DNA from: Paludibacteraceae bacterium
Lineage (GTDB): Bacteria; Bacteroidota; Bacteroidia; Bacteroidales; Paludibacteraceae
NCBI GenBank assembly: GCA_045602425.1
Contig: JAZSBO010000024.1
Coordinates: forward strand, 17,434-81,433
Direction: 5' to 3'
Length of the DNA: 64,000 bases
The position numbers and the translations under genes were made by a program. Positions 2,891 to 47,959 of this stretch are shown piece by piece. The notes under the pieces were generated by a model. The model was given only the letters and a program-made list of their open reading frames with translations, was not told where the DNA came from and ran no database searches. Every line of letters starts with the position of its first letter. Position 1 is the stretch's first letter.

Positions 2891-2895
2891 GTTTT

Positions 2896-3882: not shown

Positions 3883-3924
3883 AAATAATGCTATTTTATG
3901 AATCTATCCAATAACAATTACAAA

Positions 3925-6104: not shown

Positions 6105-6162
6105 CTACAAATGTACGACATAAAGTTATTTTTTTGGCCCCTAAAGTTTAATTTTCAATTAA

Positions 6163-7044: not shown

Positions 7045-7061
7045 TTTTAATACGAATAAAG

Positions 7062-8804: not shown

Positions 8805-8806
8805 CA

Positions 8807-10260: not shown

Positions 10261-10268
10261 ATAATATT

Positions 10269-11627: not shown

Positions 11628-11632
11628 TCACT

Positions 11633-14628: not shown

Positions 14629-14671
14629 TATTTATATAACGCAAATTACTCTATTTTATTGTTAAACAACA

Positions 14672-14705
14672 AGAAAAAACTCCACAACTTATAACGTTAT
14701 GGAGC
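14672..14705 (-). terminator. Rho-independent terminator of ppdK
   Basis: Stem 14680-14688 pairs with 14696-14704 (one G-U). The plus-strand A-run at 14673-14679 is a U-run on the minus strand. Confidence 0.55.
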
Positions 14706-14734
14706 TTTTCCCTTTTTATTGTTTAACCTTAATT

Positions 14735-17455
14735 TTATTCAACAGCAGCTTGTGCAGCAGCCAAACGTGCGATAGGCACACGGAATGGAGAGCAAGAGAC
14801 ATAGTTCAAGCCAACTTTGTGGCAGAACTTCACTGATGAAGGTTCACCTCCATGTTCTCCACAAATACCGCATTTCAATTCTGGACGTACTGAACGACCT
14901 TTGTCTACTGCCATCTCTACCAACTGACCTACACCGTTTTGGTCAAGCACTTGGAATGGGTCAACTTTCAAGATTTTCTTTTCAAGATATACAGGCAAGA
15001 AGCTAGCAATATCGTCACGAGAATATCCAAATGTCATTTGAGTCAAGTCGTTTGTACCGAATGAGAAGTATTCTGCACGACTAGCAATACGATCTGCAGT
15101 AAGAGCAGCACGTGGAATTTCAATCATTGTACCCACTTTGAATTCTACTTCTACACCTTCTTCAGCGAAGAGAGCAGCAGCAGTTTCGCGAATAACTTTT
15201 TCTTGAGCTTCAAATTCGTACAAAATACCTGTCAAAGGCACCATGATTTCTGGATGAGGATCGCCACCTTCCTTCTTCAACTGGATAGCAGCACCCAAGA
15301 TAGCGCGTGTCTGCATTTCAGTGATTTCTGGATAAGTGTTACCCAAACGGCAACCACGATGACCAAGCATTGGGTTTGCTTCGCAAAGGCTATCAACACG
15401 TTGACGGATGTATTCAACTGTTACACCCATTGCTTTTGCCATTTCTTCTTGACCTTTCAAATCATGTGGTACGAATTCATGCAAAGGAGGATCGAGCAAA
15501 CGAACGTTTACTGGGCATCCGTCCATAGCTTTGAAAATGCCATAGAAGTCAGCTTTTTGGTATGGTAACAATTTTGCCAATGCTTTTTTGCGTCCTTCTG
15601 CATCTTGCGAAAGAATCATTTCGCGCATAGCAACGATTTTTTCTGCTTCGAAGAACATGTGTTCTGTACGGCAAAGACCAATACCTACAGCACCGAAGTC
15701 GCGAGCAACCTTAGCATCGTGTGGAGTATCAGCGTTGGTACGAACCACCAATTTGGTATATTTTTCGCAAAGTGCCATCAAGTCAGCAAAGTCACCCGAC
15801 ACTTCTGCAGCTTTTGTTTCAACTTGTCCATTGTAGATTTCGCCAGTTGTACCGTTCAACGAAATGAAGTCACCTTCTTTCAAGAACACACCATCAACCT
15901 CTACTGTACGAGCTTTGTAATCGATGTTCAAAGCACCTGCACCTGATACGCAGCATTTACCCATACCACGGGCAACTACAGCAGCGTGCGAAGTCATACC
16001 ACCACGAGCAGTAAGGATACCTTCAGCAACAGCCATACCTGCCAAGTCTTCAGGCGAAGTTTCTATACGAACCATAATCACTTTTTTACCATCTTCTGCC
16101 CATTTTGCAGCATCGTCGGCAAAGAAAACGATTTGACCACAAGCAGCACCTGGCGATGCAGGAAGACCACGAGTCAATACTTTGGCCGAAGCCAATGCTT
16201 TTTTATCGAACACTGGGTGAAGAAGTTCGTCAAGTTTGTTTGGTTCACAACGTTGCAATGCTGTTTTTTCGTCAATCATACCTTGACGAAGGAGATCCAT
16301 AGCGATTTTCACCATAGCAGCTCCAGTACGTTTTCCGTTACGAGTTTGCAAGAACCAAAGTTTACCTTCTTGTACGGTAAATTCCATATCTTGCATATCA
16401 CGATAGTGATTTTCAAGTTTTGTTTGAAGAGCATCAAGTTCTGCATAAATTTCAGGCATTGCTTCTTCCATTGAAGGATATTTAGCCAAACGTTCTTCTT
16501 CTGAAATTCCAGCACGCTCTGCCCAACGTTGCGAACCGATTTTAGTGATTTGTTGAGGAGTACGAATACCAGCCACAACGTCTTCACCTTGAGCATTGAT
16601 CAAATATTCACCATTGAACAAGTCTTCGCCGTTACCAGCATCGCGAGAGAAGCAAACGCCAGTTGCCGAAGTATCGCCCATGTTACCGAACACCATTGCT
16701 TGAACGTTAACAGCTGTACCCCATTCCGCTGGTATTCCTTCCATTTTTCTGTAAAGAATAGCACGTTCGTTCATCCAGCTATCAAATACAGCACAGATAG
16801 CGCCCCAAAGTTGTTCATAGGCACTTGTTGGGAAATCTTTTCCTGTTTGAGCTTTAACAGCTGCTTTGAACTTAGCAACCAACTCTTTCAAATCTTCAAC
16901 TTCCAACTCGTTGTCGAGTTTTACACCTTTAGCTTCTTTTACTTCTTCGATGATAGCTTCAAATGGATCGATGTCTTCTTTGTTTACAGGCTTCATACCC
17001 AACACCACATCACCATACATTTGAACGAAACGACGGTAAGAGTCCCAAGCAAAGCGTGGACGACCAGTTTTGCGAATCAAACCTTCTACTACTTCATCAT
17101 TCAAGCCAAGGTTCAAAATTGTATCCATCATACCTGGCATCGAAGCACGTGCACCCGAACGAACCGAAACCAACAATGGATTTTCTACATCGCCAAATTT
17201 AGAATTCATCAACTTTTCGATGTTAGCAACGGCTGCCATCACATCGTCTTTCAAAAGTTCTACAACTTTATCTTTTCCGACTTCGAAATACTCGGTACAA
17301 ACATCTGTTGTAATTGTAAAACCTGGAGGAACTGGCACTCCGATAAGATTCATTTCGGCCAAGTTAGCTCCCTTACCACCAAGCAGATTTCTCATATCTG
17401 CCTTACCTTCGGCTTGTCCGTTGCCGAACGTGTAAACTCGTTTTTTGTTGTCCAT
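14735..17455 (-). CDS. ppdK: Pyruvate, phosphate dikinase
   Basis: Likely start MDNKKRVYTFG (M12 of the track ORF). LGGKGANLAEM, catalytic-His region TARGGMTSHAAVVARGMG, and C-terminal GLNYVSCSPFRVPIARLAAAQA. Confidence 0.95.
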   Translation of the reverse strand: MDNKKRVYTFGNGQAEGKADMRNLLGGKGANLAEMNLIGVPVPPGFTITTDVCTEYFEVGKDKVVELLKDDVMAAVANIEKLMNSKFGDVENPLLVSVRSGARASMPGMMDTILNLGLNDEVVEGLIRKTGRPRFAWDSYRRFVQMYGDVVLGMKPVNKEDIDPFEAIIEEVKEAKGVKLDNELEVEDLKELVAKFKAAVKAQTGKDFPTSAYEQLWGAICAVFDSWMNERAILYRKMEGIPAEWGTAVNVQAMVFGNMGDTSATGVCFSRDAGNGEDLFNGEYLINAQGEDVVAGIRTPQQITKIGSQRWAERAGISEEERLAKYPSMEEAMPEIYAELDALQTKLENHYRDMQDMEFTVQEGKLWFLQTRNGKRTGAAMVKIAMDLLRQGMIDEKTALQRCEPNKLDELLHPVFDKKALASAKVLTRGLPASPGAACGQIVFFADDAAKWAEDGKKVIMVRIETSPEDLAGMAVAEGILTARGGMTSHAAVVARGMGKCCVSGAGALNIDYKARTVEVDGVFLKEGDFISLNGTTGEIYNGQVETKAAEVSGDFADLMALCEKYTKLVVRTNADTPHDAKVARDFGAVGIGLCRTEHMFFEAEKIVAMREMILSQDAEGRKKALAKLLPYQKADFYGIFKAMDGCPVNVRLLDPPLHEFVPHDLKGQEEMAKAMGVTVEYIRQRVDSLCEANPMLGHRGCRLGNTYPEITEMQTRAILGAAIQLKKEGGDPHPEIMVPLTGILYEFEAQEKVIRETAAALFAEEGVEVEFKVGTMIEIPRAALTADRIASRAEYFSFGTNDLTQMTFGYSRDDIASFLPVYLEKKILKVDPFQVLDQNGVGQLVEMAVDKGRSVRPELKCGICGEHGGEPSSVKFCHKVGLNYVSCSPFRVPIARLAAAQAAVE

Positions 17456-17500
17456 AAATGTATTGTTAAATAATATTTTAATTTCCAATTAATAATTCTG

Positions 17501-17508
17501 CAAAATTA
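17501..17508 (-). promoter_or_regulatory. -7 promoter motif TAATTTTG
   Basis: The plus strand reads caaaatta. It lies 46 nt upstream of the ppdK start. Confidence 0.35.
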
Positions 17509-17580
17509 TACATTTTCAGCAAAATACAAAAGATTTTATTTTGCAAAAACAAATACTATTAAATAATAAAAAAAGAGGTA

Positions 17581-17611
17581 TAAAAAAGGAGTAAAAATTA
17601 ATCTTTACTCC
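17581..17611 (-). terminator. Rho-independent terminator overlapping the stop codon of the 140-aa gene
   Basis: Stem ggagtaaa (17588-17595) pairs with tttactcc (17604-17611). The plus-strand A-run at 17582-17587 is a U-run on the minus strand. Confidence 0.5.
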
Positions 17612-18027
17612 ACTTTTACGAATGAATAACAATTGCCAAAATCGTCTTCGAAAACAAGCGTCTGAAGGTCGAGCTGGGTGAGGCGATAGGTTTTGGGAAT
17701 CGTTCCGTTTAGCTCCATATTGTGCAGATGAGTAAATCGAGAATGATCCAATTGCCACTCGAAAATGGGAGCTTCTTCCTCAAGAATATCATCGGCACTA
17801 TCCCACGTGCGACCAACACCATCGTAGTCGAAGCGATAGAACACCGACCCCGACTGCCAGAGTCCAATGAGCAAATCGGTATCATACTCCACATCTTCGA
17901 AAACTTCGGGTTCAAGCATTTCAGGGTCGTATACGTGCAACTGATAATTGTAGTACCAATATCCGCCAACGGCAAGAGCCACCACACCAAAAACAACAGA
18001 AACGGCAACAATGATTTTCTTTCTCAT
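17605..18027 (-). CDS. Small membrane-anchored protein of unknown function
   Basis: 140 aa. One N-terminal TM segment (IIVAVSVVFGVVALAVGGYWYY). It lies 7 nt downstream of the preceding gene. Confidence 0.5.
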   Translation of the reverse strand: MRKKIIVAVSVVFGVVALAVGGYWYYNYQLHVYDPEMLEPEVFEDVEYDTDLLIGLWQSGSVFYRFDYDGVGRTWDSADDILEEEAPIFEWQLDHSRFTHLHNMELNGTIPKTYRLTQLDLQTLVFEDDFGNCYSFVKVE

Positions 18028-18034
18028 AACAGCG

Positions 18035-19597
18035 TCATTTTTTTCTCAGATTTATCACTTTGGGCGTTTTGCCTTTGAATTGCGGCATAGTCATTCCTAT
18101 CGAAGCGTTGATGTAGGTAGGATCGCAAACGTAGTATTTTTTACCAGCAAAGGGAAAAACATCGCCTTTCAGCGTAACGTTGTCGCCTAAGCAAACGGCC
18201 GTAGCCACGTGTCCTTCGTACTGAAGTCCAATAACATCGGCTCCTGCATAAGTTTTCACGAGCCACGCAAAGAGTGCCGAGCGGTCTTCGCAATCGCTGT
18301 ACGAATAGCCCAACACCTCTTCGGGGTAGAAATATTTTTCGTAACCAAACTGCTCTTCGTCAGTTTTGTAGGCAAAAGCTGTTTGCACAAAATTCAGCAA
18401 GATGGAAACAATTTGTTGCTTGCTATACTTCGACTTCAATGCGCCGAACTTTGCATTCAGCGTTTGCTGAGCTTCGAGCGAAATGGGAGAAACGAAATAG
18501 ATGGGGAAAACCGTCATTGGCACATCGTTAAGAAAGGCAAGATGAGCCGTATTGTACGGAAGAGCGATTTCCGAATTGAGTTTTTTGATTTTCAGCGTGC
18601 GATGGCGGTTGCATTTGCCGATGTTGAGCGTACGGTCGAAGTCGAGACGCATTTGTTTCAGTACCGACTCCTGCTCGCAAAAATCGTACGAATAGATGCT
18701 CTCTTTGGCTGTGCCACCACCATAAACGGTGTAATACTTCACCGGTCGATTGTTTTCTTTGAACGTGAAATAGATGTACGAATAGACCTCTTTTTTGTTG
18801 TCAAGTGCCAACAGCAAAGTAAGTTTGCCCGACGACTGACCTCGTGCCAACTTCGCTTTGTAGCCGCCCTCGTTGCGAAGCATATAGAAGCAAAAAAGCA
18901 CCCGATCGTTGACGTTACTCAATGCTGCCTCGGCTACCATTCGTAGTAGGCAAAACCGCCCCCACTCGTTCAGCCCAAAAGCCACCGATTGCTTTTCGAT
19001 GGCTTGCCAAAGTACCTCGGTTTCGGCAGTGAGTTTCGATATGCTTCTGAAGTAGAGTGCCGCATCCTGCTCTTTGGCTCCACGCGAAGCGATTTTCAGT
19101 TTCGGGCTGAAAGGCAACGCCACACGTGTGCCGTAGAAATCGAGCAACACCTGCGAGCCCTGCACCACACCACGCTTCGATGCACTTGGTGCAACGCACT
19201 TCTGCACAGCACCTTTCTGCGAAAGCGAAGTTTGCACCGCATAACTCCCAGCCGTAGCCGTGGCGTGCGTAATAGGTTGCTGCGTTTCGCTGAAATTGAT
19301 GAAAACCTCCGGCTCTTGCGTATTAGGTGCTACGGGAGCTTTAGAGAGTTTTGGCGAAGAGATGGCCAAACTCTGCAACCGAAAATCCTCGAACAACTGC
19401 CACTGACGCTCTACAAATGCCGAAAACTCCTCGTTTTGCTTGGCAGAGAAAGCCTTAAACTCTGACTCTTTTTCCGCCACAAACGCATCGAAACGTTCTT
19501 GCATCTGACTAAAATGTTCGTCAAACGATCTGTTTTGCGAAAAAACGAAAAACGTTTCGCAAAGAAATACTGCTATAAAAAAATCCCGTCTCATCAA
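18035..19597 (-). CDS. Secreted protein with C-terminal transglutaminase-like (Cys-His-Asp) core
   Basis: 520 aa. Signal peptide. N-terminal helical region with repeated EF.AF units. The C-terminus has YSDCEDRSALFAWLVKTYAGADVIGLQYEGHVATAVCL...YYVCDPTY, matching the C...H...D order of transglutaminase-like cysteine peptidase cores. Confidence 0.5.
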   Translation of the reverse strand: MMRRDFFIAVFLCETFFVFSQNRSFDEHFSQMQERFDAFVAEKESEFKAFSAKQNEEFSAFVERQWQLFEDFRLQSLAISSPKLSKAPVAPNTQEPEVFINFSETQQPITHATATAGSYAVQTSLSQKGAVQKCVAPSASKRGVVQGSQVLLDFYGTRVALPFSPKLKIASRGAKEQDAALYFRSISKLTAETEVLWQAIEKQSVAFGLNEWGRFCLLRMVAEAALSNVNDRVLFCFYMLRNEGGYKAKLARGQSSGKLTLLLALDNKKEVYSYIYFTFKENNRPVKYYTVYGGGTAKESIYSYDFCEQESVLKQMRLDFDRTLNIGKCNRHRTLKIKKLNSEIALPYNTAHLAFLNDVPMTVFPIYFVSPISLEAQQTLNAKFGALKSKYSKQQIVSILLNFVQTAFAYKTDEEQFGYEKYFYPEEVLGYSYSDCEDRSALFAWLVKTYAGADVIGLQYEGHVATAVCLGDNVTLKGDVFPFAGKKYYVCDPTYINASIGMTMPQFKGKTPKVINLRKK

Positions 19598-19603: not shown

Positions 19604-20395
19604 CTACTCTAAATACCTTACCAATCGCTCTACCGACGCATCTTTCAGTAGGACACGTTTTTGTTCATCTAAAAGATAAAGTGTAGGCAAAGCACGTATG
19701 CTATACAATGCTTTACCGTCTATATCCGGTGCATATACATTATGCCAAGAAGTGGGGCAATCCGACTTACGCCAAAGCTCCACATCATGGTCTATATATA
19801 CTGCCATTATCACCACTTGGTGAGCAAACCGAGAGTTTACAAGAACTCGCTTCACTTGTTTGCATTCATCGCAAGAAGGGTCGTAAAAAAACAACACGAC
19901 AAACTTGCCTTTCACATCGTACAGATTACCTTTCTCTCCGTTTTGATAGGTAAAACAAAAATCTGCCGCACAACTTCCTACTTGATTTTTTGCAATGGAT
20001 GCATGATGATTTTTATACCTCTCATAGCCCGACTTCTTATGAACTACATACTCTAAAAATACACTATATATCTTCTCATTATAGTAAGGAGAATTGGGCT
20101 CGTAGAGGTACTTTTCTGCCAACTGCATAAAACGCTCCATACACCCTGCTTGCTCTGCACGAAGGAGCAGACTCTGCACCTGCTCCGATTGCTCCGAATG
20201 CGACGACCGCACCACATCTATTAAAAACCGAGCAAACCGCTCCTCTGCTCTGTGCGACTCGACCTCTTCTTTGTTTCCAAATGCAAAACCATCCCACACA
20301 GAACGCTGTGGCGGTAGGGATTGTGCTGAGAGAAAACTATTTAACAGAAACAACCCATTAAATAATAAGACAGCATGTAGGAAACTTCTCTTCAT
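19604..20395 (-). CDS. TlpA/AhpC-like thioredoxin-fold protein with DUF5106-like N-terminal domain
   Basis: 263 aa. Signal peptide. FVVLFFYDPSCDECKQV contains a CxxC motif. C-terminal ALPTLYLLDEQKRVLLKD. Confidence 0.65.
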   Translation of the reverse strand: MKRSFLHAVLLFNGLFLLNSFLSAQSLPPQRSVWDGFAFGNKEEVESHRAEERFARFLIDVVRSSHSEQSEQVQSLLLRAEQAGCMERFMQLAEKYLYEPNSPYYNEKIYSVFLEYVVHKKSGYERYKNHHASIAKNQVGSCAADFCFTYQNGEKGNLYDVKGKFVVLFFYDPSCDECKQVKRVLVNSRFAHQVVIMAVYIDHDVELWRKSDCPTSWHNVYAPDIDGKALYSIRALPTLYLLDEQKRVLLKDASVERLVRYLE

Positions 20396-20402: not shown

Positions 20403-21155
20403 TTAATAAAGTAGAATATCATCAAGAAACCACTGTCTCAACTCATCTTTTACAAAGAACTGAAAATCTTTATTTTCATCATACAATTTCTGAAAATCCT
20501 GTTCTGGCTTTTTTATTCTCAAAGAAAGAGCATATTCTGAAAGAGTGTTTGAATCCATTTTTATTGCAACACACACATCATCATTCAAATATTTTCCACT
20601 ACAAATAACTTCTGAATGATCAAGAATATGTTCCCACAGACGGAAACGCCTTACCATCATCTCCTTCAATGATTTCGTAGACATAAAAGTTCTATTTTCA
20701 TCGACAAAAAACTCTCCTACTCTATTTATATTTTCAGAAGCAATGCTATATGCTGCCATTTTACGGGCTTCGGATAAAGCAAAAACAGAATCTTCTTTAA
20801 TATCAAATATTCCAAAACCTCTCATTTCCCCATCAACCTGCTCAAATACTAAATCATGACATGGAAGCACAATCCGAGTTGTATCCAATTCTACAGATTC
20901 ATCCTCTGCAGAAAAATGTTTGGATACAGCCTCTCTAAATTTTTCTTCAAAAAACTTCTTTTTCAGAATAAGAAGAGAATCCATTTCTGTATCGGAAAAG
21001 AACTGCCTATACAAAGAAAACGACGTTTTTTCCCTTTCTGCCCAATCAAGTTCTCTTTGAAGACGATTTTCATTCTCTTCTACAAATGATTCTTCTGCTA
21101 ACGCAGCAGGTAGTGCTAACAGATAGCACATAACTAATGTTATAAAAATTCTCAT
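20403..21155 (-). CDS. Hypothetical secreted protein
   Basis: 250 aa. Signal peptide MRIFITLVMCYLLALPAALA. No motif recognised. Confidence 0.45.
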   Translation of the reverse strand: MRIFITLVMCYLLALPAALAEESFVEENENRLQRELDWAEREKTSFSLYRQFFSDTEMDSLLILKKKFFEEKFREAVSKHFSAEDESVELDTTRIVLPCHDLVFEQVDGEMRGFGIFDIKEDSVFALSEARKMAAYSIASENINRVGEFFVDENRTFMSTKSLKEMMVRRFRLWEHILDHSEVICSGKYLNDDVCVAIKMDSNTLSEYALSLRIKKPEQDFQKLYDENKDFQFFVKDELRQWFLDDILLY

Positions 21156-21302
21156 AATTAATTTATTTTAATCATTTGCCTTTCAAAGCAACATCATATT
21201 GAAGATTTTGTCCACAAGAAAGCTCCATATTATATATCATGTATACGGCATTTTCTCTACCATGAGAATAATAGGTGTCATATAAAGCATTAATACAAAT
21301 TA

Positions 21303-21626
21303 TCATACTCCGAAAAACACTGTAATTTTCGGAGTTTTACTCCAAATTTTAGTGCTTTTTTTGGAATTTGCGACAAGGTTACAAAAAAATCTACTATCCA
21401 ACAAATTTATTTTGCCAAAATACCCACGGGATATTCTATCCTTGCCGATAATGCTCTGTTCGCCATGTAGAAACCCATATACCACGCAATGCCTATCATA
21501 AAAAAGAAAATCCGCAAAATGTCTATTCAATGACAAGTACTGACAAAAAGCCACCTCACTTATCATAGACAGAAGAATAAACAGAAGTGTACGATTAATT
21601 AATAAATGCTTAAACATCTTAACCAA
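21303..21626 (-). CDS. Doubtful small ORF (possibly the front part of a disrupted gene)
   Basis: 107 aa with a hydrophobic N-terminus. A further 46-codon ORF follows in another frame (about 21177-21317). Confidence 0.2.
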   Translation of the reverse strand: MVKMFKHLLINRTLLFILLSMISEVAFCQYLSLNRHFADFLFYDRHCVVYGFLHGEQSIIGKDRISRGYFGKINLLDSRFFCNLVANSKKSTKIWSKTPKITVFFGV

Positions 21627-21667
21627 AGGTTCAGCTTTAGAAAAATTTTAACATACTCACTTATATA

Positions 21668-22777
21668 TTAAAAATAAGGAACGTATTGATTAAATGCCAA
21701 CCCAAATCCACCCACAAATCCACCTACATCTACAAATATACCTTGTTCACAAGAAGCACAACAGTCATCTATACTATATTTCCCATTTTCATATAAAAGT
21801 ATTCCGCTTCGTATGTATTCCCAATTCCACAAGTATGTACCTGTTCCAATACTGCATCCTGCGAGTCCAACGCGAGTTGATGTCTCTGACGGATATGTAA
21901 ATGTAACTGTAATAGAGACTTCTTTTCGTGCAGGAATTACTCCTGTATGCGATGAAAACAGCACACCTTCTTTTGGAATATTATAAATATTATAAGGAAC
22001 TTCTATATAACGATTGTTTTTTAAACGAAGATTTTTTGTAGTTGACTTTCCCGCTAAAGTATATTGACTACAATAAAAAACCATACGTGCTGGACCATTA
22101 GCCCAACTTCCTGTTCCCAAATCCGCTTCCCATGGATTAAACAACACCTTTAGTGTTATATTTTTGTTTCCATTATTAGAAGTAATATATAAAGTAGATG
22201 TATTTTCTACTTCTGTTAACACAGAGCGATTAATCGAAACCAAAATCATTTTTTTACCTTTTGGAGCAAGATTACCATTTTTATCACTTATTGCTTCAAT
22301 CCATGGAGTTGTAGTAGACATTATTTCCCACTCCAGATTTTCTGATCCATCATTAAATATAATAAACGAACATGATGTTATATCTTCAGAATCACCAAAA
22401 TCTAACACTTCTATCTCCTCTCCATTATCATTCAGCACTTTCAGTGCCGATGCCGATTTCTCTATCTGCACGTCGCATTTTGCAGCTTCGTTTGATAGTA
22501 CATTTACCATAGAAGTTGCAAAATCGACATAACCCGTTTTAGTTACCAATAGCGTGTAACTTCCAGGATTGAGTTGAGTAAACTCAAACTGTCCCTCACT
22601 ACCCGTTACGGTTTTCAATCCACCCGGGCTGAGTTCAACACCTGCCGATTTAATCGGCTCACCTGTGGCTTTATCCACCACCGTACCATAAATACTACCA
22701 GGAAGATCATCATTTTCGCAACCTTGCCATAGCAATATCACAAAAGATAGTAATAGATATTTAAATAACAGTTTCAT
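21668..22777 (-). CDS. Surface lipoprotein paralog 3: CarboxypepD_reg + BACON/Ig-like domain + unrelated Cys/Gly-rich tail
   Basis: 369 aa. Lipobox LLWQGC followed by CENDD. GTVVDKATGEPIKSAGVEL...GSYTLLV. LEWEIMSTT...STLYITSNNGNKNITLKV. The tail contains DDCCASCEQG and VGGFVGGFGLAF. There is an ATGA overlap with the upstream paralog. Confidence 0.7.
   Translation of the reverse strand: MKLLFKYLLLSFVILLWQGCENDDLPGSIYGTVVDKATGEPIKSAGVELSPGGLKTVTGSEGQFEFTQLNPGSYTLLVTKTGYVDFATSMVNVLSNEAAKCDVQIEKSASALKVLNDNGEEIEVLDFGDSEDITSCSFIIFNDGSENLEWEIMSTTTPWIEAISDKNGNLAPKGKKMILVSINRSVLTEVENTSTLYITSNNGNKNITLKVLFNPWEADLGTGSWANGPARMVFYCSQYTLAGKSTTKNLRLKNNRYIEVPYNIYNIPKEGVLFSSHTGVIPARKEVSITVTFTYPSETSTRVGLAGCSIGTGTYLWNWEYIRSGILLYENGKYSIDDCCASCEQGIFVDVGGFVGGFGLAFNQYVPYF
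22448..22777 (-). repeat. Near-identical 5' coding block shared by the three paralogs (copy 3)
   Basis: The DNA aligns by eye with 24373-24702 and 26305-26634, for example ...accaggaagatcatcattttcgcaaccttgccata... Boundaries are approximate. Confidence 0.7.
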
Positions 22778-24702
22778 TCATTATTTATTGTTCTGACACA
22801 ACGGACACTTTTTATATCAGATTTAAATCCAGTACGAATTTCCCCATATTCTTCAGAAAAATCAATATAATAAGTATATTGATCGTTTAAATCTTTAGAA
22901 GTCCAATAATGAGCAAGATTATCATCCCAAGAAGAAGGAGGGCGTGTATCTATTAAAATTAAATTAGGTATTTCATATTTATACTTAAATAATTCACTCA
23001 ATTCTACAAATGTAGGAAGATGCCAGTCCGTAAACCCAGCATATGAGTATTCTTCACATAAATTAATTGCTTCTCGCCATTTAGCTCCACCTATATCAAA
23101 ATTGGAAACCATTAAATTAGACGCTGATAATACAGTATATCTTGAATCACTTGCCTTAAAAGATTTAACATTACCATATACCACTTTTCCTGATGAAACC
23201 GCATACGCACGTACATAGTAAGTATTATTTAAAATTAAACTATTTACTGTTGCCTGTATTGCACCTACTCCTGACATTGACACTTCCTCTTTTGTAGCTC
23301 CATTATCTAACGTAGGTAAAGACATCGTTCCATACACAAAACCGCATTCGGTATAAGCGGGATCTCCTGCAGAAACTATCGTTCCATTAAAACTTGCTGT
23401 TGATTCTGTGAGATTGACAACAGAACCTGTCTCTATCGTCGGCATTATGGCATTAAAATCAAATGACACCTCTTCTCCGTAAGCAATACCCTGTTCATTT
23501 ATTGCATACGCACGAACATAATACGTATTACCTAATTGCAAATTAGTAGCATTAGTCGAAAATTCACCTATACCCTTACCTGTTGCAACAACTTTTATAT
23601 CGCTATCTACCATTGGGTTATGGGTTGTGGCATATACAAAACCACGTTCCGTATAAATTGGATCACCCTCATCAATAATGGTCCCGTTAAAAGTTGCTTT
23701 ACCTGCTGTGCGAGAGATGTTTGTGACGGCTTGCGTGCTGACTTGAGGCAATGCATCAGAAGGAGTGAACGACACCTCATTCGTACTATATGCTTCTTTA
23801 CCTGCGTTAATGGCATATGCACGCACATAGTAGGTTTTGCCTTTTGTTAATCCTGCTACTGTAGCGGAATAGGTTTTGCTATCAGTCAATGTAGAAGTTA
23901 TTTTCTGAATACAACTACCTAATGTAGGCATAGAGGATTCCGAATACACAAAACCGCGTTCACTATATTTAGGGCTACCGTCTGTCAATATCTCGCCATT
24001 AAGGGTGGCAGTAGTAGTTTTTACGTTTGTCGCAGCCAAGGTGTTAAGCGTAGTAAGAATAGGACCGGTTGCTATAATTTTCAATTGCTTACTACCATTA
24101 TTGGATGTAATATGCACCGTAGTTGTATTCTCTCCACTTTTGAGTTTTGTTCTATCAATCGACACAATCAAGGATTGAGTAGCACCAGCAGATAAAACAC
24201 CCTCTTCTTTACTAATGGATTTTACCCAATCGGCAGTAGCCACTATCTGCCACTCCAACGACTCCTCGCCATCATTAAACAAGCTGAACGAACGTACTAC
24301 ATCGTCCACCGAACTACCAAAATCCAACTCACTTATCTCCTGACGGCTGTCGTTCACCACCTTCAATGCAGGTGGCAATTTCTCTATCTGCACATCACCT
24401 TTGGCTGTTTGTGCAGATTCTACTACAATTGTATTACTTGCAAAATCAAAGTAACCCGTTTTAGTTACCAATAGCGTGTAACTTCCAGGATTGAGTTGAG
24501 TAAACTCAAACTGACCCTCGCTACCAGTAACGGTTTTCAATCCTCCAGGAGAGAGTTCCACACCTGCCGATTTAATCGGCTCACCGGTAGCTTTATCCAC
24601 CACCGTACCATAGATACTACCAGGAAGATCATCATTTTCGCAACCTTGCCATAGGAGGGTTGCCAACAAAACCAAAGACAAAAGATAAAAGATTTTTTTC
24701 AT
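22774..24702 (-). CDS. Surface lipoprotein paralog 2: CarboxypepD_reg + BACON/Ig-like + 3 beta-sandwich repeats + DUF1566 lectin-like head
   Basis: 642 aa. Lipobox LLWQGC then CENDD. Three ~100-aa repeats each end in TYYVRAYA. C-terminal FTDWHLPTFVELSELF...HYWTS...VRCVR is typical of the DUF1566/Lcl C-terminal domain. Confidence 0.75.
   Translation of the reverse strand: MKKIFYLLSLVLLATLLWQGCENDDLPGSIYGTVVDKATGEPIKSAGVELSPGGLKTVTGSEGQFEFTQLNPGSYTLLVTKTGYFDFASNTIVVESAQTAKGDVQIEKLPPALKVVNDSRQEISELDFGSSVDDVVRSFSLFNDGEESLEWQIVATADWVKSISKEEGVLSAGATQSLIVSIDRTKLKSGENTTTVHITSNNGSKQLKIIATGPILTTLNTLAATNVKTTTATLNGEILTDGSPKYSERGFVYSESSMPTLGSCIQKITSTLTDSKTYSATVAGLTKGKTYYVRAYAINAGKEAYSTNEVSFTPSDALPQVSTQAVTNISRTAGKATFNGTIIDEGDPIYTERGFVYATTHNPMVDSDIKVVATGKGIGEFSTNATNLQLGNTYYVRAYAINEQGIAYGEEVSFDFNAIMPTIETGSVVNLTESTASFNGTIVSAGDPAYTECGFVYGTMSLPTLDNGATKEEVSMSGVGAIQATVNSLILNNTYYVRAYAVSSGKVVYGNVKSFKASDSRYTVLSASNLMVSNFDIGGAKWREAINLCEEYSYAGFTDWHLPTFVELSELFKYKYEIPNLILIDTRPPSSWDDNLAHYWTSKDLNDQYTYYIDFSEEYGEIRTGFKSDIKSVRCVRTINNE
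24057..24702 (-). repeat. Near-identical 5' coding block (copy 2, about 215 codons shared with copy 1)
   Basis: For example, 24277-24396 is almost identical to 26209-26328. Boundaries are approximate. Confidence 0.7.
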
Positions 24703-24720
24703 AGATGTAATAGTTAATTT

Positions 24721-26634
24721 CTAATTTTCTTTCCTGACACAACGCACACGGTGGTCGCCGTTCTTGCCGTTGTTGTAGTAGCTGGTCTGATTGCCAGTGC
24801 TGAAATGCTGAAGCCACACGTAGTTACTGCCACTACTATACTCCGTACTGCTCCAATAGTAGGCACTAAAGAAACCACCTATTTCATTTTTGTAGATATA
24901 CATCGTATTTAGTACACTTTTTGATGGCAACACCCAATCTGAATATCCACCGTATGTCAAATTCTCACAAGTACTCATGGCTTGATACCAATCCATGTAA
25001 TTACTAAATTCTGGATGAACACGATACGTTTCTTCTGCGTGAACAAAAGTAGGTAGGTTGTTATATGCAATCTCTTCTGGAGAAATATGCCACACTATGC
25101 CATAAGCGATATTTGAACCACTTATAGCGTAGGCACGCACATAAATAGTTTCTTTACCCATGTTGTCTATTGAAACTTCTTTTTCAAATTGTGCTGACGT
25201 ATTTTTAGCAACAATTACTTTTGTTACTGCCTCATCATCAATCATTGGATTTTGCATTGTACCATAAATAAAACCACGTTCGGTATATTCAGGATCGCCT
25301 GCATTAGTAATTTTACCAATGAAATATGCTGTTGTACTACTTTTAACTTTGACAGAAAATGTTGTTACTTGTGGTGGGATAGCTTTGAAATCAGCTACCA
25401 CTTCTTCGCCATAGGCAGTGCCTTGTGTGTTGGTAGCATATGCACGAACATAGTATATGGTGCCTAATTGCAAATTATCTACATTGGCAGAAAACTCACC
25501 ATTTCCTTTACCTGCCGCCACTACCTTTGTATCGCTACCCACCATAGGATTATGCGTGGTAGCATACACAAATCCACGTTCAGTATAAATAGGTTCGCCA
25601 CTATCAACAATTGTTCCATTGAATGTGGCACGACCTGCCGAACGAGAAATGTCCGTTACTGCTTGAGTAGTTACTTGTGCCAAGCATTCTGAAGGGGTGA
25701 ACGAAATTTCATTTGTGCTATAGACTTCTTTTTCTCCATTGACAGCATAGGCGCGAGCATAATATGTTTTACCTTGAGTCAGACCAGTAATAATAGCAGA
25801 AAATTTTTTACTATCGGTCAATGTAGATGTCACCTTTTTTATGCAGTCTTCAAATGTCGGCATTGAGGATTCGGAATAAACAAAACCACGTTCGCTATAC
25901 TTAGGACTACCATCCGTCAGAATCTCGCCATTGAGTGTGACTGTGGTCGTTTTTACATTGGTAGCAGGCAATGTATTAAGCGTAGCAAGTGTGGGACCTG
26001 TTGCGATAATGGTCAATTGCTTGGCTCCGTTGTTGGAAGAGATATGCAACGTCGTTGTGTTTTTTCCACTTTTAAGTTTTGCTCTATCAAGCGTCACAAT
26101 CAACGACTGTGTCGCTCCTGCAGAAAGCACACCTTCTGTCTTGCTAACGGACTTAATCCATTCTGCTGTTGTAGTGATTTGCCACTCCAAAGATTCTTCG
26201 CCATCGTTAAACAAGCTGAACGAACGTGCTACATCGTCCACCGAACTACCAAAATCTAACTCACTTATCTCTTGACGGCTGTCGTTCACCACCTTCAATG
26301 CAGGTGGCAATTTTTCTATCTGCACATCGCATTTTGCAATTTCGTTGGATAGGACATTTACCGTAGAAGTTGCAAAATCGACATAACCTGTCTTGGTAAT
26401 CAACAAGGTGTATTTGCCAGGCGTCAGCTGCGTAAACTCAAACTGTCCCTCGCTACCCGTTACGGTTTTAAGTCCACCCGGGCTGAGTTCCACACCTGCC
26501 GACTTGATAGGTTCACCTGTGGCTTTATCCACCACCGTACCATAGATACTACCAGGAAGATCATCATTTTCGCAACCTTGCCATAGGAGGGTTGCCAACA
26601 AAACCAAAGACAAAAGGTAAATGAGTTTTTTCAT
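24721..26634 (-). CDS. Surface lipoprotein paralog 1: CarboxypepD_reg + BACON/Ig-like + 3 beta-sandwich repeats + DUF1566 lectin-like head
   Basis: 637 aa. Same architecture as paralog 2. Repeats end in TYYARAYA, IYYVRAYA and IYVRAYA. C-terminal YSDWVLPSKSVLNTMY...YYWSSTEY...VRCVRKEN. Confidence 0.75.
   Translation of the reverse strand: MKKLIYLLSLVLLATLLWQGCENDDLPGSIYGTVVDKATGEPIKSAGVELSPGGLKTVTGSEGQFEFTQLTPGKYTLLITKTGYVDFATSTVNVLSNEIAKCDVQIEKLPPALKVVNDSRQEISELDFGSSVDDVARSFSLFNDGEESLEWQITTTAEWIKSVSKTEGVLSAGATQSLIVTLDRAKLKSGKNTTTLHISSNNGAKQLTIIATGPTLATLNTLPATNVKTTTVTLNGEILTDGSPKYSERGFVYSESSMPTFEDCIKKVTSTLTDSKKFSAIITGLTQGKTYYARAYAVNGEKEVYSTNEISFTPSECLAQVTTQAVTDISRSAGRATFNGTIVDSGEPIYTERGFVYATTHNPMVGSDTKVVAAGKGNGEFSANVDNLQLGTIYYVRAYATNTQGTAYGEEVVADFKAIPPQVTTFSVKVKSSTTAYFIGKITNAGDPEYTERGFIYGTMQNPMIDDEAVTKVIVAKNTSAQFEKEVSIDNMGKETIYVRAYAISGSNIAYGIVWHISPEEIAYNNLPTFVHAEETYRVHPEFSNYMDWYQAMSTCENLTYGGYSDWVLPSKSVLNTMYIYKNEIGGFFSAYYWSSTEYSSGSNYVWLQHFSTGNQTSYYNNGKNGDHRVRCVRKEN
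25989..26634 (-). repeat. Near-identical 5' coding block (copy 1)
   Basis: See copy 2. Boundaries are approximate. Confidence 0.7.
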
Positions 26635-26669
26635 GACAAAAGAATAAATTATGTAAGTGTATATGTATA

Positions 26670-26987
26670 TTATTTTTTCTGCAAAGTGATATTCACATTT
26701 GCTGTAGCACCAGCTACTACGGTAATAGTTTTACGATTAGAGCTATAACCTGTAGCTTGTACTGTAAGCGTGTATTGCCCCGCTTCTAAATCTTGGAATT
26801 CAAAATATCCATCCGAACCAGTTATAGAATTTTTACCCGATGGACTTAAAATAACAGATACTCCATCGATAGGATCTTTTGTTTGTTCATCGACCACAGT
26901 ACCCGTAATTGTAGAAAACACATCGTAAGTTACAGGAGAACAAGAAGCAAACAACACAAGTGATAATACAAATAAATACTTTTTCAT
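26670..26987 (-). CDS. Mini-lipoprotein consisting of a single CarboxypepD_reg-like domain
   Basis: 105 aa. Lipobox LFASC. ITGTVVDEQTKDPIDGVSVILSPSGKNSITGSDGYFEFQDLEAGQYTLTVQATGY. Confidence 0.75.
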   Translation of the reverse strand: MKKYLFVLSLVLFASCSPVTYDVFSTITGTVVDEQTKDPIDGVSVILSPSGKNSITGSDGYFEFQDLEAGQYTLTVQATGYSSNRKTITVVAGATANVNITLQKK

Positions 26988-26999
26988 TATTTCAAAATT

Positions 27000-27794
27000 T
27001 TAAAAATTAAACCTCATTGCTAATCCACCACCATCATACGTTGCATAAGGTGCCATGTGCAGTTGAGCCGTTCCTACCATAACATGCTTTTTCCCTTTAG
27101 CAACAATACCATCTATCACATTCCATACATACAAGGCAGCAGCTCCAGCAATACATACATTACGAGTAATTACACAAGCGTTTGCTTTATTAGCATATTG
27201 TTGTTTTAATATGCTATTATGCGTCATCCCTATCTGCTGTTCATAATTATTACGTAAACATTCAGCCGCAACAATACCTCCAATAAAAACTACTTCACCT
27301 GCAATAAAACAAGCTCCTTTTGCAACACTACCTTTATATATTTGTGCCATACCAGGCACAAAAACACGAGCAGAAAAAGGATATTTCTCTGACACCGTAA
27401 CAGGTTCTAATGTAAAAGTTGGATTTTTAGCCGTTTGCACTAGTAAATACACTTTATAAATACCAGCACTTAATCGCTCATGATATTCATCTACAATTCT
27501 CGCATTTACAATCAGTTTCTTTTCGCTGACAACTTGCAAATTATTATTAAGTGAGGATACCGTAGCATCTGTTCCTGTAGCCAAACTACGACGTGCAATT
27601 ATTTGTTGAGTAGCTTTTTTCTTTGCGTCTTCCAAATCATAACCCTCTCCTATAACTACCTCTATATATGAATTTTTAGATTCTTCAAAGTATCCATTTG
27701 TCCATTGGGGACGTTCTTGTGCAAAAGTGCATTGCTCTACTATAAAAAGGAAAAACAATGCACTTATGACTATTTTCAAAAATCGGTTCATCAA
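27000..27794 (-). CDS. Protein with LPP20-like N-domain fused to a DUF5683-like membrane region
   Basis: 264 aa. Signal peptide. RPQWTNGYF...YIEVVIGEGYDLEDAKKKATQQIIARRSLA shows the LPP20-type pattern. FVPGMAQIYKGSVAKGACFIAGEVVFIGG and LYVWNVIDGIVAKG resemble DUF5683. It ends ...AMRFNF. Confidence 0.5.
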   Translation of the reverse strand: MMNRFLKIVISALFFLFIVEQCTFAQERPQWTNGYFEESKNSYIEVVIGEGYDLEDAKKKATQQIIARRSLATGTDATVSSLNNNLQVVSEKKLIVNARIVDEYHERLSAGIYKVYLLVQTAKNPTFTLEPVTVSEKYPFSARVFVPGMAQIYKGSVAKGACFIAGEVVFIGGIVAAECLRNNYEQQIGMTHNSILKQQYANKANACVITRNVCIAGAAALYVWNVIDGIVAKGKKHVMVGTAQLHMAPYATYDGGGLAMRFNF

Positions 27795-27799
27795 TGAAA

Positions 27800-28396
27800 T
27801 TATTTATTATTCTCTTGATATTGTTTAAATCGTTCTGTCATTTGTTCTCTATATTGAGATTCATGAAAGCCAATTTTCATTTTTTCTTCGTCAGTTAACT
27901 TATTAGCGACCTCATCAGCAATTTTTTGAGATAAATCAACCTTTGGAATTCTTATAGCAACGTAACATTCTATATGTCCATCTGCTGCAACTGAACCATA
28001 TTTTACACAACATTCAGCAGTATTATTAACAACAGCATCGATTATCTGATCACCTGCCTTTGACATTTTAGTTTCGATATCGTTGCCAGCATTGTTCCCT
28101 ACCGACGATGAATAATTACTCACCATACCTTTATACGCATGTTTAATTTTCATACGAACAATATCTTGTGCATTTGCTAAAGCATACGCATGCACCTCGC
28201 CTTTTTGATTCATACTACCGCGATAAATTCCAGTTGCAGCAAATTCCTCTGGCGTATCATAAACGGTACATGGTGCTTCATAAACATCTCCAAAAGGGCT
28301 ACTACTTGTTTGTTGTTGTGCTACTTGTTTTTGAGCTCCACACGAACAAAACACTACAGCCAATAAGGCTAAACTAAATAAACTTACTTTTCTCAT
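27800..28396 (-). CDS. LPP20/FlgP-like small lipoprotein (paralog of 57915-58463)
   Basis: 198 aa. Lipobox VVFCSC. It shares landmarks with the 182-aa protein at 57915-58463: PC after the signal peptide, NYSSS/NYASS, DG..(E/R)CYV.I.I, and a charged C-terminal helix. Confidence 0.55.
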   Translation of the reverse strand: MRKVSLFSLALLAVVFCSCGAQKQVAQQQTSSSPFGDVYEAPCTVYDTPEEFAATGIYRGSMNQKGEVHAYALANAQDIVRMKIKHAYKGMVSNYSSSVGNNAGNDIETKMSKAGDQIIDAVVNNTAECCVKYGSVAADGHIECYVAIRIPKVDLSQKIADEVANKLTDEEKMKIGFHESQYREQMTERFKQYQENNK

Positions 28397-28441
28397 TTTT
28401 AATAAAATTTAAATTGTTAATAAATAAAAAAATATCAGCGA

Positions 28442-28449
28442 CAAAGATA
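28442..28449 (-). promoter_or_regulatory. -7 promoter motif TATCTTTG for the envelope operon
   Basis: The plus strand reads caaagata. It lies 46 nt upstream of the ATG at 28396. Confidence 0.4.
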
Positions 28450-28481
28450 TAACATACAGAAGATTGCAACTTGATAGTTTT

Positions 28482-28522
28482 GTTGCATAAAAAGGTACAA
28501 AATGTTGCATTTTTGGGTACAA
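28482..28522 (-). promoter_or_regulatory. Tandem direct repeat GTTGCAT-N5-GGTACAA x2 (22-bp period); candidate operator
   Basis: Copy 1 is 28482-28488 plus 28494-28500. Copy 2 is 28504-28510 plus 28516-28522. The repeat lies between the HTH gene stop (28574) and the operon promoter motif. Confidence 0.35.
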
Positions 28523-28573
28523 TACAGAATAGAAAGAGATCCAAATATATCCCAGAGAACAACAAGGAATAAA

Positions 28574-28789
28574 TCAGAAACCTACTTGAGAAATTCGTAG
28601 GAAGAAATCACAATTCAAAGCTTTGGATATTCGTCGAAGCAAAGCTGTATCCATATCCTCGCGTTCGAGAATCTTGTAGGCATTGCTTCGATTGCAATGC
28701 AACTGCTCTGCCAACCACGCCACCGAACGACGTTGTAATTTCAATTCCTGTCGAATCATTTCTCCGATATGTAGTTCGTGTCCATTCAT
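28574..28789 (-). CDS. 71-aa helix-turn-helix DNA-binding protein (XRE-like)
   Basis: MNGHELHIGEMIRQELKLQRRSVAWLAEQLHCNRSNAYKILEREDMDTALLRRISKALNCDFF. It is a paralog of 50387-50602, with 26 of 57 manually aligned positions identical. Confidence 0.7.
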   Translation of the reverse strand: MNGHELHIGEMIRQELKLQRRSVAWLAEQLHCNRSNAYKILEREDMDTALLRRISKALNCDFFLRISQVGF

Positions 28790-29009
28790 TCAACAAAAAA
28801 GCGTAAACCGCTGCATGTTAAGAATTTCCACAAAAGAGGCTCCGCAATTGCCCTGAACAAGAAAATAAACACGAACAGTTCACGCCTGCCGCATGAACAC
28901 CTACACGGTTTATTCTTCTTGTTGATGAGAAATTTTGCGGATTTCTTTTGTGAAGAATAAAACTAAAAAATAAAAAATCTTACCTACTCGGCAAGATTCC
29001 ACAAAAGTA
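28790..29009 (-). promoter_or_regulatory. About 200-nt structured non-coding leader region upstream of the HTH gene
   Basis: Minus-strand TACTTTTG at 29002-29009. Nested inverted repeats 28910-28918/28952-28960 and 28928-28933/28941-28946. Hairpin 28878-28898 carries TCATGCGG. A weak hairpin plus T-run lies just before the ATG. Confidence 0.3.
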
Positions 29010-38009: not shown

Positions 38010-38163
38010 ATAAATAAAATTCTAAAAATTTGAACAAAGGTAAGTGTTTTTGCTATTAAGTGCAACCTTTGACTTCTAATGAAAAAGTTGTTAATAAGTT
38101 TTTGTTCAATGTTTGTAAGGAAAGTATGATTCTTGTAAATTTGCAAAAATCATTTGGACATTA

Positions 38164-39570: not shown

Positions 39571-39578
39571 GGAATCAG

Positions 39579-40307: not shown

Positions 40308-40311
40308 TTCT

Positions 40312-41049: not shown

Positions 41050-41059
41050 AATTAAATAG

Positions 41060-43000: not shown

Positions 43001-43003
43001 AAT

Positions 43004-46216: not shown

Positions 46217-46255
46217 AAAAATTAATTTTACCTTAATAGTTTTTGTTTTGTTGTT

Positions 46256-47881: not shown

Positions 47882-47894
47882 ATTATACGATCCG

Positions 47895-47930: not shown

Positions 47931-47959
47931 CAAAACAAACATTTTTTTTACAAAAGCCC

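Follow-up and report, generated by a model that had tools for sequence, protein, structure and literature searches.

In this work we have analysed a 64-kb stretch of DNA from a Paludibacteraceae bacterium (contig JAZSBO010000024.1; "the window" below means this whole stretch), in which six adjoining genes on the minus strand encode envelope proteins. A first-pass annotation of the same DNA had proposed an uncharacterised envelope operon, and we found that these genes do form a genuine envelope cassette, as yet uncharacterised, which is conserved, recurs in 80 loci and matches no characterised system. The cassette is built from two synteny units: the genes g1 and g2 make up the first (A-B), and the small lipoprotein gene g3 with one or more genes for variable lipoproteins (V) makes up the second (c-V). 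The variable lipoproteins have a common anchor, and their heads are exchanged by recombination between close strains. Our best explanation, which we hold tentatively, is that the cassette is a modular adhesin or receptor display system holding a modular set of surface lipoproteins.

A conserved cassette with exchangeable heads

The open reading frames (ORFs) of the window and their spacing were recomputed. On the minus strand, the cassette starts with g1 ('A', 27800..28396), which encodes a lipoprotein of 198 amino acids (aa) with an Lpp20/Tip-alpha-type SHS2 fold, and continues with g2 ('B', 27000..27794), a 264-aa membrane protein with a signal peptide, and g3 ('c', 26670..26987), a 105-aa lipoprotein which consists of one CarboxypepD_reg domain. 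These are followed by three V lipoproteins: p4 (24721..26634, 637 aa) with a DUF1566/Lcl_C head, its paralog p5 (22774..24702, 642 aa), which is built in the same way but whose DUF1566 head has diverged, and p6 (21668..22777, 369 aa), a further paralog in which the same anchor is followed by two Ig-like domains and a C-terminus rich in Cys and Gly. The intergenic distances are 5 nt between g1 and g2, 12 nt between g2 and g3, 35 nt between g3 and p4, 18 nt between p4 and p5 and -4 nt between p5 and p6. The coordinates and spacing given earlier for the six genes and a helix-turn-helix (HTH) gene ahead of them agree with our ORF list, and most of the domains agree with Pfam.

One genome per GTDB species was scanned for relatives of g2, which gave 144 sites, and 80 loci were kept; with g2 as the bait, the proteins and domains of the window were compared by phmmer with every ORF in them. 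The loci belong to Paludibacteraceae, Muribaculaceae, Rikenellaceae/Alistipes, Odoribacter, Tannerella, Prevotellaceae, Lentimicrobiaceae and Bacteroides; cultivable carriers include Odoribacter lunatus DSM 112344, Alistipes senegalensis and Bacteroides sp. 519 (loci L038, L041 and L073). The nearest named relatives are metagenome-assembled genomes of Paludibacteraceae and Bacteroidaceae. The g2 family comprises 830 database members (protein clusters), all of them named 'hypothetical' and none with a Pfam domain. Both g3 and longer lipoproteins with the same N-domain (V) were found beside g2 in 77 of the 80 loci, and g1 in 69; fn3-like repeats accompany g2 in 58 loci, a BACON/Ig domain in 57, DUF1566 heads in 47, a homolog of the transglutaminase-like protein dn520 (T) in 36 and a homolog of the HTH gene in 7. 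That LPP20-like genes and lectin-head genes should occur together in other genomes had been named as a check on the operon, and the counts for anchor-domain lipoproteins and DUF1566 heads bear it out. The commonest gene order is g1-g2-g3-V-T (ABcVT), ABcV and cVAB also occur, and g3 always adjoins a variable lipoprotein or g2. Because the order cVAB is found as well, A-B and c-V behave as two linked pairs, and the recurrence of the gene set in 80 independent species-level loci places the arrangement beyond chance. In a subclade (L061-L066 and L079), whose g2 is about 40% identical, g1 is not adjacent and the genes are ordered g2-g3-V-V; the heads in this subclade include FGE-sulfatase; in L065, SbcC-like and RmuC-like genes, identified by eye, lie 5' of g2.

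With a gathering cut-off of 32.3 bits for CarboxypepD_reg (PF13620), g3 scores 73.8, p4 51.6, p5 52.5 and p6 55.1 bits, so that all four belong to the family; the Pfam E-value is 1.5e-20 for g3, which is thus the lone CarboxypepD_reg lipoprotein that the first-pass annotation had described, and about 1e-13 for p4 and p5. Lcl_C/DUF1566 (PF07603, cut-off 34.9 bits) is present in p4 (51.6 bits) and p5 (52.0 bits; E about 1e-13) and lacking in p6. BACON_2 is matched weakly by p4 and p5 (5e-7), and p6 has an Ig-like domain. The stalk of p4 and p5 consists of three fn3-like repeats of about 100 aa, which appear in the DNA as periodic repeats of 300-312 nt, and the composition proposed for these two proteins (CarboxypepD_reg, BACON/Ig, three repeats, DUF1566) is therefore supported by both Pfam and the DNA. 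The unrelated Cys/Gly-rich tail ascribed to p6 needs a correction: only its last approximately 70 residues are Cys/Gly-rich, with no domain assigned to them, and the first part of the tail is another Ig-like domain (residues 250-298, E=6e-6). This type of tail recurs in one other locus (L059, E=2e-37).

The mature N-terminus CENDD, noticed earlier, is identical in p4, p5 and p6 and is part of a stretch of 55 residues (LLWQGCENDD...FTQL) which is 100% identical in the three proteins. Their genes differ in this stretch by 12-16 synonymous codons, and complete protein identity in spite of these differences reflects purifying selection and not just recent gene conversion. The heads of p4, p5 and p6 are only 20-43% identical. 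The N-domain is better conserved than the remainder of the protein in 49 of 54 within-locus V pairs, with extremes of 95-97% versus 35-48%. Head types in the other loci are FGE-sulfatase (5e-46, a C-type-lectin fold), Laminin_G_3 (2e-12, ConA-like), Lcl_C/DUF1566 and arrays of BACON_2. The V proteins open with a lipobox and an acidic stretch. Their CarboxypepD_reg domain, on which purifying selection is strong, comes next, ahead of an Ig/fn3 stalk and interchangeable heads of binding type.

Direct evidence for the exchange of heads came from a related metagenomic strain (L087/L088), whose g1 is 97% identical. Its DNA can be aligned collinearly with that of the window, at a nucleotide identity of 93.5%, over a segment that begins at the glycogen genes and extends to about codon 462 of p4, where the alignment breaks. 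The strain has a single V protein of 700 aa, which equals p4 over residues 100-303 and ends in two CarboxypepD_reg-like domains, not in DUF1566; p5 and p6 are missing, and in their stead there are a radical SAM/SPASM gene and small ORFs, which are unrelated to them. An anchor and stalk of p4 with another head is direct evidence that the heads are exchangeable and that a recombination hotspot lies here, and so the earlier idea of exchangeable heads is upheld by a swap between strains about 93% identical in DNA as well as by the better conserved anchors of the within-locus pairs. The segment which replaces p5 and p6 in L087 (11575-13295) holds ORFs of 44 and 157 aa and a radical SAM/SPASM enzyme, and it looks like a maturation cassette for a ribosomally synthesised and post-translationally modified peptide, inserted in the variable region. 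The 512-nt gap 3' of p6 in the window (21156..21667, minus strand) contains a doubtful 107-aa ORF and a promoter-like motif, TAAATTTG, at 21409. Its part 21502-21607 is conserved in L087 beside remnants of a deleted thioredoxin-like gene; at L087 13308-13641 the homolog of the gap is fused to N- and C-terminal remnants of the dn263 type in a mosaic ORF of 109 aa, which identifies 21156-21667 as a rearrangement scar or hotspot.

Where are these lipoproteins located? At least two acidic residues at positions +2 to +6 were found in 71 of 111 V proteins and in none of 59 g1 homologs. An acidic lipoprotein export signal, CS(D/E)2 or K-(D/E)2, the latter also given as K/QA-(D/E)2, has been established experimentally in B. 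thetaiotaomicron and C. canimorsus (PMC6222051). Since the acidic enrichment of the V proteins resembles this signal, they are probably exposed on the outer surface, and g1 probably faces the periplasm.

The p4 head (24721-25077) resembles hypothetical proteins of two Pseudomonas phages (36-40% identity) and the C-terminus of PHROG 4245 (phrog_4245, E=9e-14); the p5 head resembles none of these. No relatives of g2 were found on viral contigs in IMG/VR, and PADLOC models did not match any of 10 locus proteins. With only this generic DUF1566 likeness to phage proteins, a phage-borne or defence-system origin was rejected. Outside the cassette, a 341-aa protein on the plus strand (52470-53495) has a Listeria-Bacteroides repeat (Flg_new, E=5e-9) and a weak Lcl_C/DUF1566 match (E=0.005), and it may be another lectin-like surface protein.

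The constant proteins g1 and g2

The lipobox Cys19 of g1 is nearly invariant in an alignment from 40 loci and invariant in an alignment of 44 database sequences. The AlphaFold2 (AF2) model of g1 (pLDDT 83, pTM 0.73) has the order strand, long helix, inserted helix, two strands and C-terminal helices. The best Foldseek match is Tip-alpha (3vnc; E=2.8e-3, probability 1.0) and the second is Lpp20 (5ok8; E=1.1e-2, probability 1.0, TM-score 0.52), and the model and these matches together assign an Lpp20/SHS2-type fold to this lipoprotein. Neither Pfam nor NCBIfam gives an LPP20 match for g1; Pfam LPP20 (PF02169) is matched by one of 40 family members (E=1.5e-3), and g1 itself falls short of the gathering score. 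An hhalign comparison of g1 with the genuine LPP20 protein of the window (see below) gave E=3.9e-4 at a probability of 35% and was partly driven by the signal peptide, and when the family alignments of g1, g2 and dn520 were run as profiles over all sequences in the PDB, nothing usable was returned. The likeness to LPP20 claimed for g1 earlier therefore holds at the level of the fold but not at that of the sequence.

The genuine LPP20 protein belongs to a second locus on the minus strand. A g1 paralog, a 182-aa lipoprotein (57915-58463; hhalign probability 99.2% and E=1.5e-19 to the g1 family), lies directly 5' of a 454-aa LPP20-domain lipoprotein (56483-57847; Pfam LPP20 E=5e-10) with a weak LptE-like C-terminus. 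A 455-aa lipoprotein with no Pfam or NCBIfam match follows (55113-56480). As the g1 paralog precedes a real LPP20 protein, a pairing of g1-type with LPP20-type proteins would occur twice in the window.

The second constant protein, g2, has a signal peptide of the cleavable type. In the AF2 model its periplasmic domain comprises a strand (42-51), a helix (54-73), a hairpin (77-90) and two further strands (95-109 and 112-122). AF2 and hydropathy both predict transmembrane helices at about 157-181 and 213-232, after which a C-terminal beta-hairpin ends in Phe. Invariant residues are found mostly in 138-234, in or beside the membrane region, and Glu167 and Asp228 are invariant within the predicted transmembrane helices; this concentration suggests that the membrane part of g2 is more than a passive anchor. 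The earlier description of g2 as 'DUF5683-like' was partly right. DUF5683 (PF18935) is matched by 19 of 27 g2 family members (best E=1.8e-4), but the protein of the window itself reaches 16.3 bits (E=0.01) where the gathering score is 26.7 bits, and this suggests a distant relative of DUF5683 and not a member. Our search for functional literature on DUF5683 found none.

The N-domain of g2 had been called LPP20-like. It has no LPP20 match in Pfam or NCBIfam, and FlgT_N is matched by one of 27 family members (E=2.6e-3). Foldseek with the full-length model gave no significant match and none to Lpp20, FlgP or FlgT; dodecin was the only match with a reasonable TM-score (probability 0.77), and the fold assignment therefore stops at topology. 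This topology, beta-alpha-(hairpin)-beta-beta in the AF2 model, is SHS2-like. FlgP, Lpp20, FlgT and dodecin have a common SHS2-like fold, and in the FlgP family the ring formers tend to have an insert that separates the SHS2 helix from the second strand (PMC12222027). The hairpin 77-90 of the g2 model sits at the position of the FlgP-type insert. An hhalign comparison of g2 with the genuine LPP20 domain was weak (E=0.001, probability 21%) and aligned the start of the domain in the correct register (ERPQW / QKPEW). The g1 and g2 families matched each other with a probability of 3.9%, too low to show mutual homology. We consider the LPP20 likeness of the g2 N-domain plausible, as topology, the weak hhalign match and synteny speak for it, whereas neither an LPP20 profile nor Foldseek does.

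Regulatory signals, the transglutaminase-like module and the rest of the window

The HTH gene (28574..28789, minus strand, 71 aa, Cro/C1-type) lies 5' of the cassette at a distance of 177 nt from g1. It matches Pfam HTH_26 just under the cut-off (E=3.4e-4), and its ORF is intact and conserved in L087. An HTH gene ahead of the operon is thus present in the window as reported, but it accompanies the cassette in so few of the loci that it is an accessory gene and not a conserved member. The promoter motif noted earlier 5' of g1 was also found: TATCTTTG (28442..28449, minus strand, read from 28449 to 28442) matches the Bacteroidetes -7 consensus TAnnTTTG and lies 53 nt 5' of the g1 ATG. A second match to the consensus, TATATTTG, occurs at 28549. 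Such matches are common in the window, at about 0.8 per kb per strand, and TATCTTTG alone is therefore weak, suggestive evidence. A scan of the locus for sigma-70 promoters was no better than shuffles, as is expected for Bacteroidetes, and an Rfam scan of the locus gave no match. A strong terminator-like hairpin (29091-29058) lies 3' of the upstream glycogen phosphorylase gene. The flanks of the cassette are housekeeping genes, with pyruvate phosphate dikinase on one side and glycogen phosphorylase and synthase on the other.

An imperfect 42-nt inverted repeat (21496-21537 and 28915-28956; 74% complementary, with a perfect 13-nt core AAATCCGCAAAAT) brackets exactly the unit from the HTH gene to p6, its arms lying about 130-170 nt beyond each end. 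Considered as a recombination or operator site, it has a core that does not recur in the window, and 3 of 100 shuffles did as well; the repeat may be due to chance, an old insertion scar or an operator.

Beyond the 512-nt gap there are three more genes on the minus strand. They encode dn250 (20403..21155), a 250-aa secreted protein and the first of a recurring three-gene module, dn263 (19604..20395), a periplasmic oxidoreductase with DUF5106 and a thioredoxin-like (TlpA/ResA-type) domain (Pfam DUF5106 5.6e-15, Thioredoxin_8 3.5e-7), and, 6 nt further on, dn520 ('T', 18035..19597), a 520-aa secreted transglutaminase-like protein. Behind its signal peptide, T has a coiled-coil and a Pro-rich linker, and its C-terminal domain contains Cys436-His463-Asp492; C436, D438, H463 and D492 are invariant in 31 sequences of the dn520 family (SDCEDR ... 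GHLATAV ... CDPTY). Transglut_core is matched by 10 and DUF553 by 6 of the 31 relatives, all below the gathering score. With its conserved triad and Transglut_core-like domain, T can be placed in the superfamily of transglutaminase-like cysteine proteases, and its activity is predicted. In L002-L006 a gene of the dn263 type stands beside a transglutaminase-like gene, and in L087 this pair is found twice. We found no Pfam match for dn250, which is 25% identical (E=8e-6) to the protein at the equivalent position in L087.

The dn250/dn263/T module also recurs in L087 as a paralogous copy. Two tandem transglutaminase-like genes are present there (13681-18193): one is a dn520 ortholog with 90% identity, and the other a paralog with 28% identity which has its own thioredoxin-like and 262-aa partners. 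These tandem modules show that the three-gene module is itself duplicated and exchanged. The T family is far larger than the cassette, with at least 3613 matches, and T appears to be a member of a broader family of periplasmic enzymes, recruited beside the cassette in 45% of the loci. The 512-nt gap with its own TAAATTTG motif makes it probable that T is transcribed separately from p6. Even so, because T adjoins the cassette in 36 of the 80 loci, the system probably includes an enzyme. The boundary drawn in the first-pass annotation was accordingly too tight, since the transglutaminase-like protein and its thioredoxin-like partner belong to the extended locus; its remark that the operon has no enzyme is true inside the six genes but not of this larger unit.

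Elsewhere in the window we noticed a protein with a eukaryotic-type Ser/Thr kinase domain (33530-34759, minus strand; Pkinase, E=3e-32) beside the glycogen synthase and phosphorylase genes. Two stretches, 1-14000 and 38000-48000, are low in GC (28-33% vs 36-46% elsewhere). The first has glycosyltransferases (GT2, GT4) and a LysM protein and looks like a surface-polysaccharide locus; the second encodes a TPR protein, DsbD, a BNR sialidase-like protein and an exo-beta-1,4-galactosidase-like protein (NCBIfam 7e-167, below the cut-off).

Possible function of the cassette and its relation to known systems

How might an adhesin or receptor display system of this kind work? The acidic motif after the Cys would send the V proteins to the cell surface, and g1 would stay on the periplasmic face of the outer membrane. 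The CarboxypepD_reg domain common to the V proteins could be a docking, recognition or address module, by which the invariant g1, g2 and g3 would assemble, position or retain whichever V proteins the strain carries. Stalk and head would be the exchangeable parts, the heads would bind glycan or protein ligands, and the head set would give each strain its own repertoire of adhesins or receptors. T may act in the periplasm as a cysteine protease or a transglutaminase, by which the V lipoproteins would be processed, released or cross-linked, and the adjacent thioredoxin-like protein may keep it reduced.

Several observations weigh against this explanation. CENDD only resembles the tested CS(D/E)2 motif, and the window's g3 has no acidic residues after its Cys; g3 and the V proteins may therefore be on different faces of the outer membrane, and a direct pairing of g3 with V is then harder to explain. 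The structural matches of g1 have modest E-values, and the g2 model has no significant match, as described above. In addition, g2 looks like an inner-membrane protein, so that its contact with the surface lipoproteins would have to be indirect or take place during biogenesis, and g1 is not adjacent in 11 of the 80 loci. As for T, it is absent from 44 of the 80 loci, the closest relatives of the window's protein are stand-alone genes in unrelated neighbourhoods, and in the window it is 2 kb away behind the 512-nt gap, all of which makes its link to the cassette statistical and not obligatory. Lastly, the cassette has no beta-barrel partner, unlike the characterised surface-lipoprotein complexes of Bacteroidota (PMC12578637).

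It may be that the V lipoproteins instead form a protective coat, an S-layer-like or 'fuzzy' layer against phage, complement or predators, with the turnover of heads serving to escape from phages which use them as receptors. We regard this as unlikely, even though CarboxypepD_reg and PEGA domains are typical of S-layer proteins and g3 matches NCBIfam S-layer models (1.6e-17 and 1e-5) over its CarboxypepD_reg domain. Rapid head turnover between close strains and the presence of DUF1566-type heads in phage proteins also accord with a coat, and surface lipoproteins of the BT1927 type confer phage resistance (bioRxiv 10.1101/521070; PMC12578637). However, the cassette has no OmpA-like barrel, recombinase or invertible promoter, PADLOC gave no match, and the heads have lectin or binding folds and not lattice-forming domains.

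Could g1, g2 and g3 be a dedicated biogenesis machine, in which g1 and g2, possibly as an SHS2 ring energised via the transmembrane acidic residues, act with g3 to export, flip or insert lipoproteins tagged with CarboxypepD_reg? The machinery that flips lipoproteins to the surface in Bacteroidota has yet to be identified (PMC6222051, PMC12578637), and some features of the constant proteins would suit such a role: the SHS2 core of g2 with the beta-hairpin insert that correlates with ring formation in the FlgP family, the Lpp20 fold of g1 and the recurrence in the window of a g1 paralog beside an LPP20 protein, and the invariant Glu167 and Asp228 inside the g2 transmembrane helices. We nevertheless think it quite improbable. 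The locus has no ATPase or known energy-coupling partner, g2 has no Foldseek match to FlgP or FlgT, and the hhalign probability between g1 and g2 is very low. Moreover, the cassette is absent from most model Bacteroides, which still export surface lipoproteins, and such a machine could at best be cargo-specific. A bolder combination of this idea with our display system, to which we give equally little credence, has g1, g2 and g3 as a trans-envelope machine that delivers or holds CarboxypepD_reg-tagged, lectin-headed lipoproteins, with an SHS2 ring of g2, anchored in the inner membrane and making use of the hairpin insert and the intramembrane Glu and Asp residues, coupled to the outer-membrane lipoprotein g1, and release controlled by T. 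If it were true, it would explain, for one class of cargo, how lipoproteins reach the surface in Bacteroidota.

Nutrient capture appears very unlikely. The V proteins would here be glycan-binding proteins which feed a distant transporter, of the SusC/D type or another, and g1, g2 and g3 would be unrelated housekeeping genes that travel with them. BACON, ConA-like and C-type-lectin-like domains are common in glycan-binding lipoproteins of Bacteroidetes, and in NCBIfam the fn3-like repeats show a likeness to the N-terminal part of an arabinanase from B. thetaiotaomicron (E=1e-19 to 2e-22). But the locus in the window lacks SusC/SusD, a glycoside hydrolase and a sugar-responsive regulator, no such genes were seen beside the 80 cassettes in searches with the window's own proteins only, and the tight linkage to g1, g2 and g3 (77/80) argues against a coincidental association. 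DUF1566 and FGE-sulfatase are classic folds of the variable proteins of diversity-generating retroelements (DGRs; PMC5758913, PMC4159848), but that the DUF1566 heads are targets of a DGR is hardly credible and, for this window, refuted, since there is neither a reverse transcriptase among the flanking genes scanned nor a template-repeat copy of the p4 or p5 head anywhere in the 64 kb.

We return to the modular display system. Surface lipoproteins dominate the way in which gut Bacteroidales meet hosts, food, phages and neighbours, and in this widespread cassette two conserved envelope proteins that lack annotation go together with a 'one anchor, many heads' repertoire which turns over between close strains. 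If the anchor does serve for docking, surface display in Bacteroidales could be engineered with a defined address domain, strain-specific variation in adhesion or phage receptors would become accessible, and the Lpp20/FlgP fold would have a role outside flagella. If it does not, the cassette is still a well-delimited, testable family to which 'hypothetical lipoprotein' operons of gut metagenomes can be assigned.

Among known proteins, the best structural matches of g1 are H. pylori Lpp20 (HP1456, PDB 5OK8) and Tip-alpha (HP0596, PDB 3VNC/2WCQ), with which it has the fold in common and no significant sequence similarity. Compared with Lpp20, g1 is extended by a helix at 103-124 and by a helical tail at its C-terminus (152-197). 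Like g1, Lpp20 is a lipoprotein, and it is found in the outer membrane and in vesicles (PMC12029599). Lpp20 offers no established mechanistic function which could be transferred to g1. FlgP and FlgT have the SHS2-like fold that the g2 model resembles in topology, and the hairpin of the model corresponds in position to the insert of the ring-forming members; g2, unlike them, is fused to a two-helix membrane domain and has no Foldseek or hidden Markov model match to FlgP. They are flagellar disk and H-ring proteins, and Bacteroidales have no flagella. The ring or disk platform suggested in the first-pass annotation is a pure inference by analogy with these proteins.

A functional analogy for T is possible with LapG of Pseudomonas fluorescens, a periplasmic transglutaminase-like Cys-His-Asp protease which is encoded near the surface adhesin LapA. 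LapG controls the retention of LapA on the cell by cleaving its N-terminal anchor, and is itself under the control of LapD, a receptor for c-di-GMP. LapA is not a lipoprotein: it is secreted by a type I system and held in a TolC-like pore. To our knowledge, T and LapG have no sequence relationship, and LapD is absent from the present locus.

The variable proteins of DGRs are hypervariable ligand-binding modules, often carried on lipoproteins (PMC5758913, PMC4159848). They have the same head folds as the cassette, whose diversity arises via paralogy and recombinational replacement of heads and not via mutagenic retrohoming. The BT1927/BT1926 loci, phase-variable S-layer lipoprotein loci of Bacteroides thetaiotaomicron, resemble the cassette in several respects: both are found in Bacteroidales, encode paralogous sets of large lipoproteins, which in the cassette are probably surface-exposed, and are implicated in surface variation. 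A BT1927 locus comprises a tyrosine recombinase, an invertible promoter flanked by 17-nt palindromes, a lipoprotein of about 100 kDa and an 8-stranded OmpA-like barrel (bioRxiv 10.1101/521070; PMC12578637). The cassette, unlike these loci, has g1, g2, g3 and often a transglutaminase-like protein and is without any of the BT1927 accessory components; with no recombinase, invertible promoter or OmpA-like barrel, and with a sole long inverted repeat that is not a recurrent motif, membership of the BT1927 type was rejected. The characterised systems (Sus-like, BtuG, BT1927/26) are barrel-linked and the present cassette is barrel-free. Its composition matches none of them, and we file it as a surface-lipoprotein display locus of the Bacteroidota.

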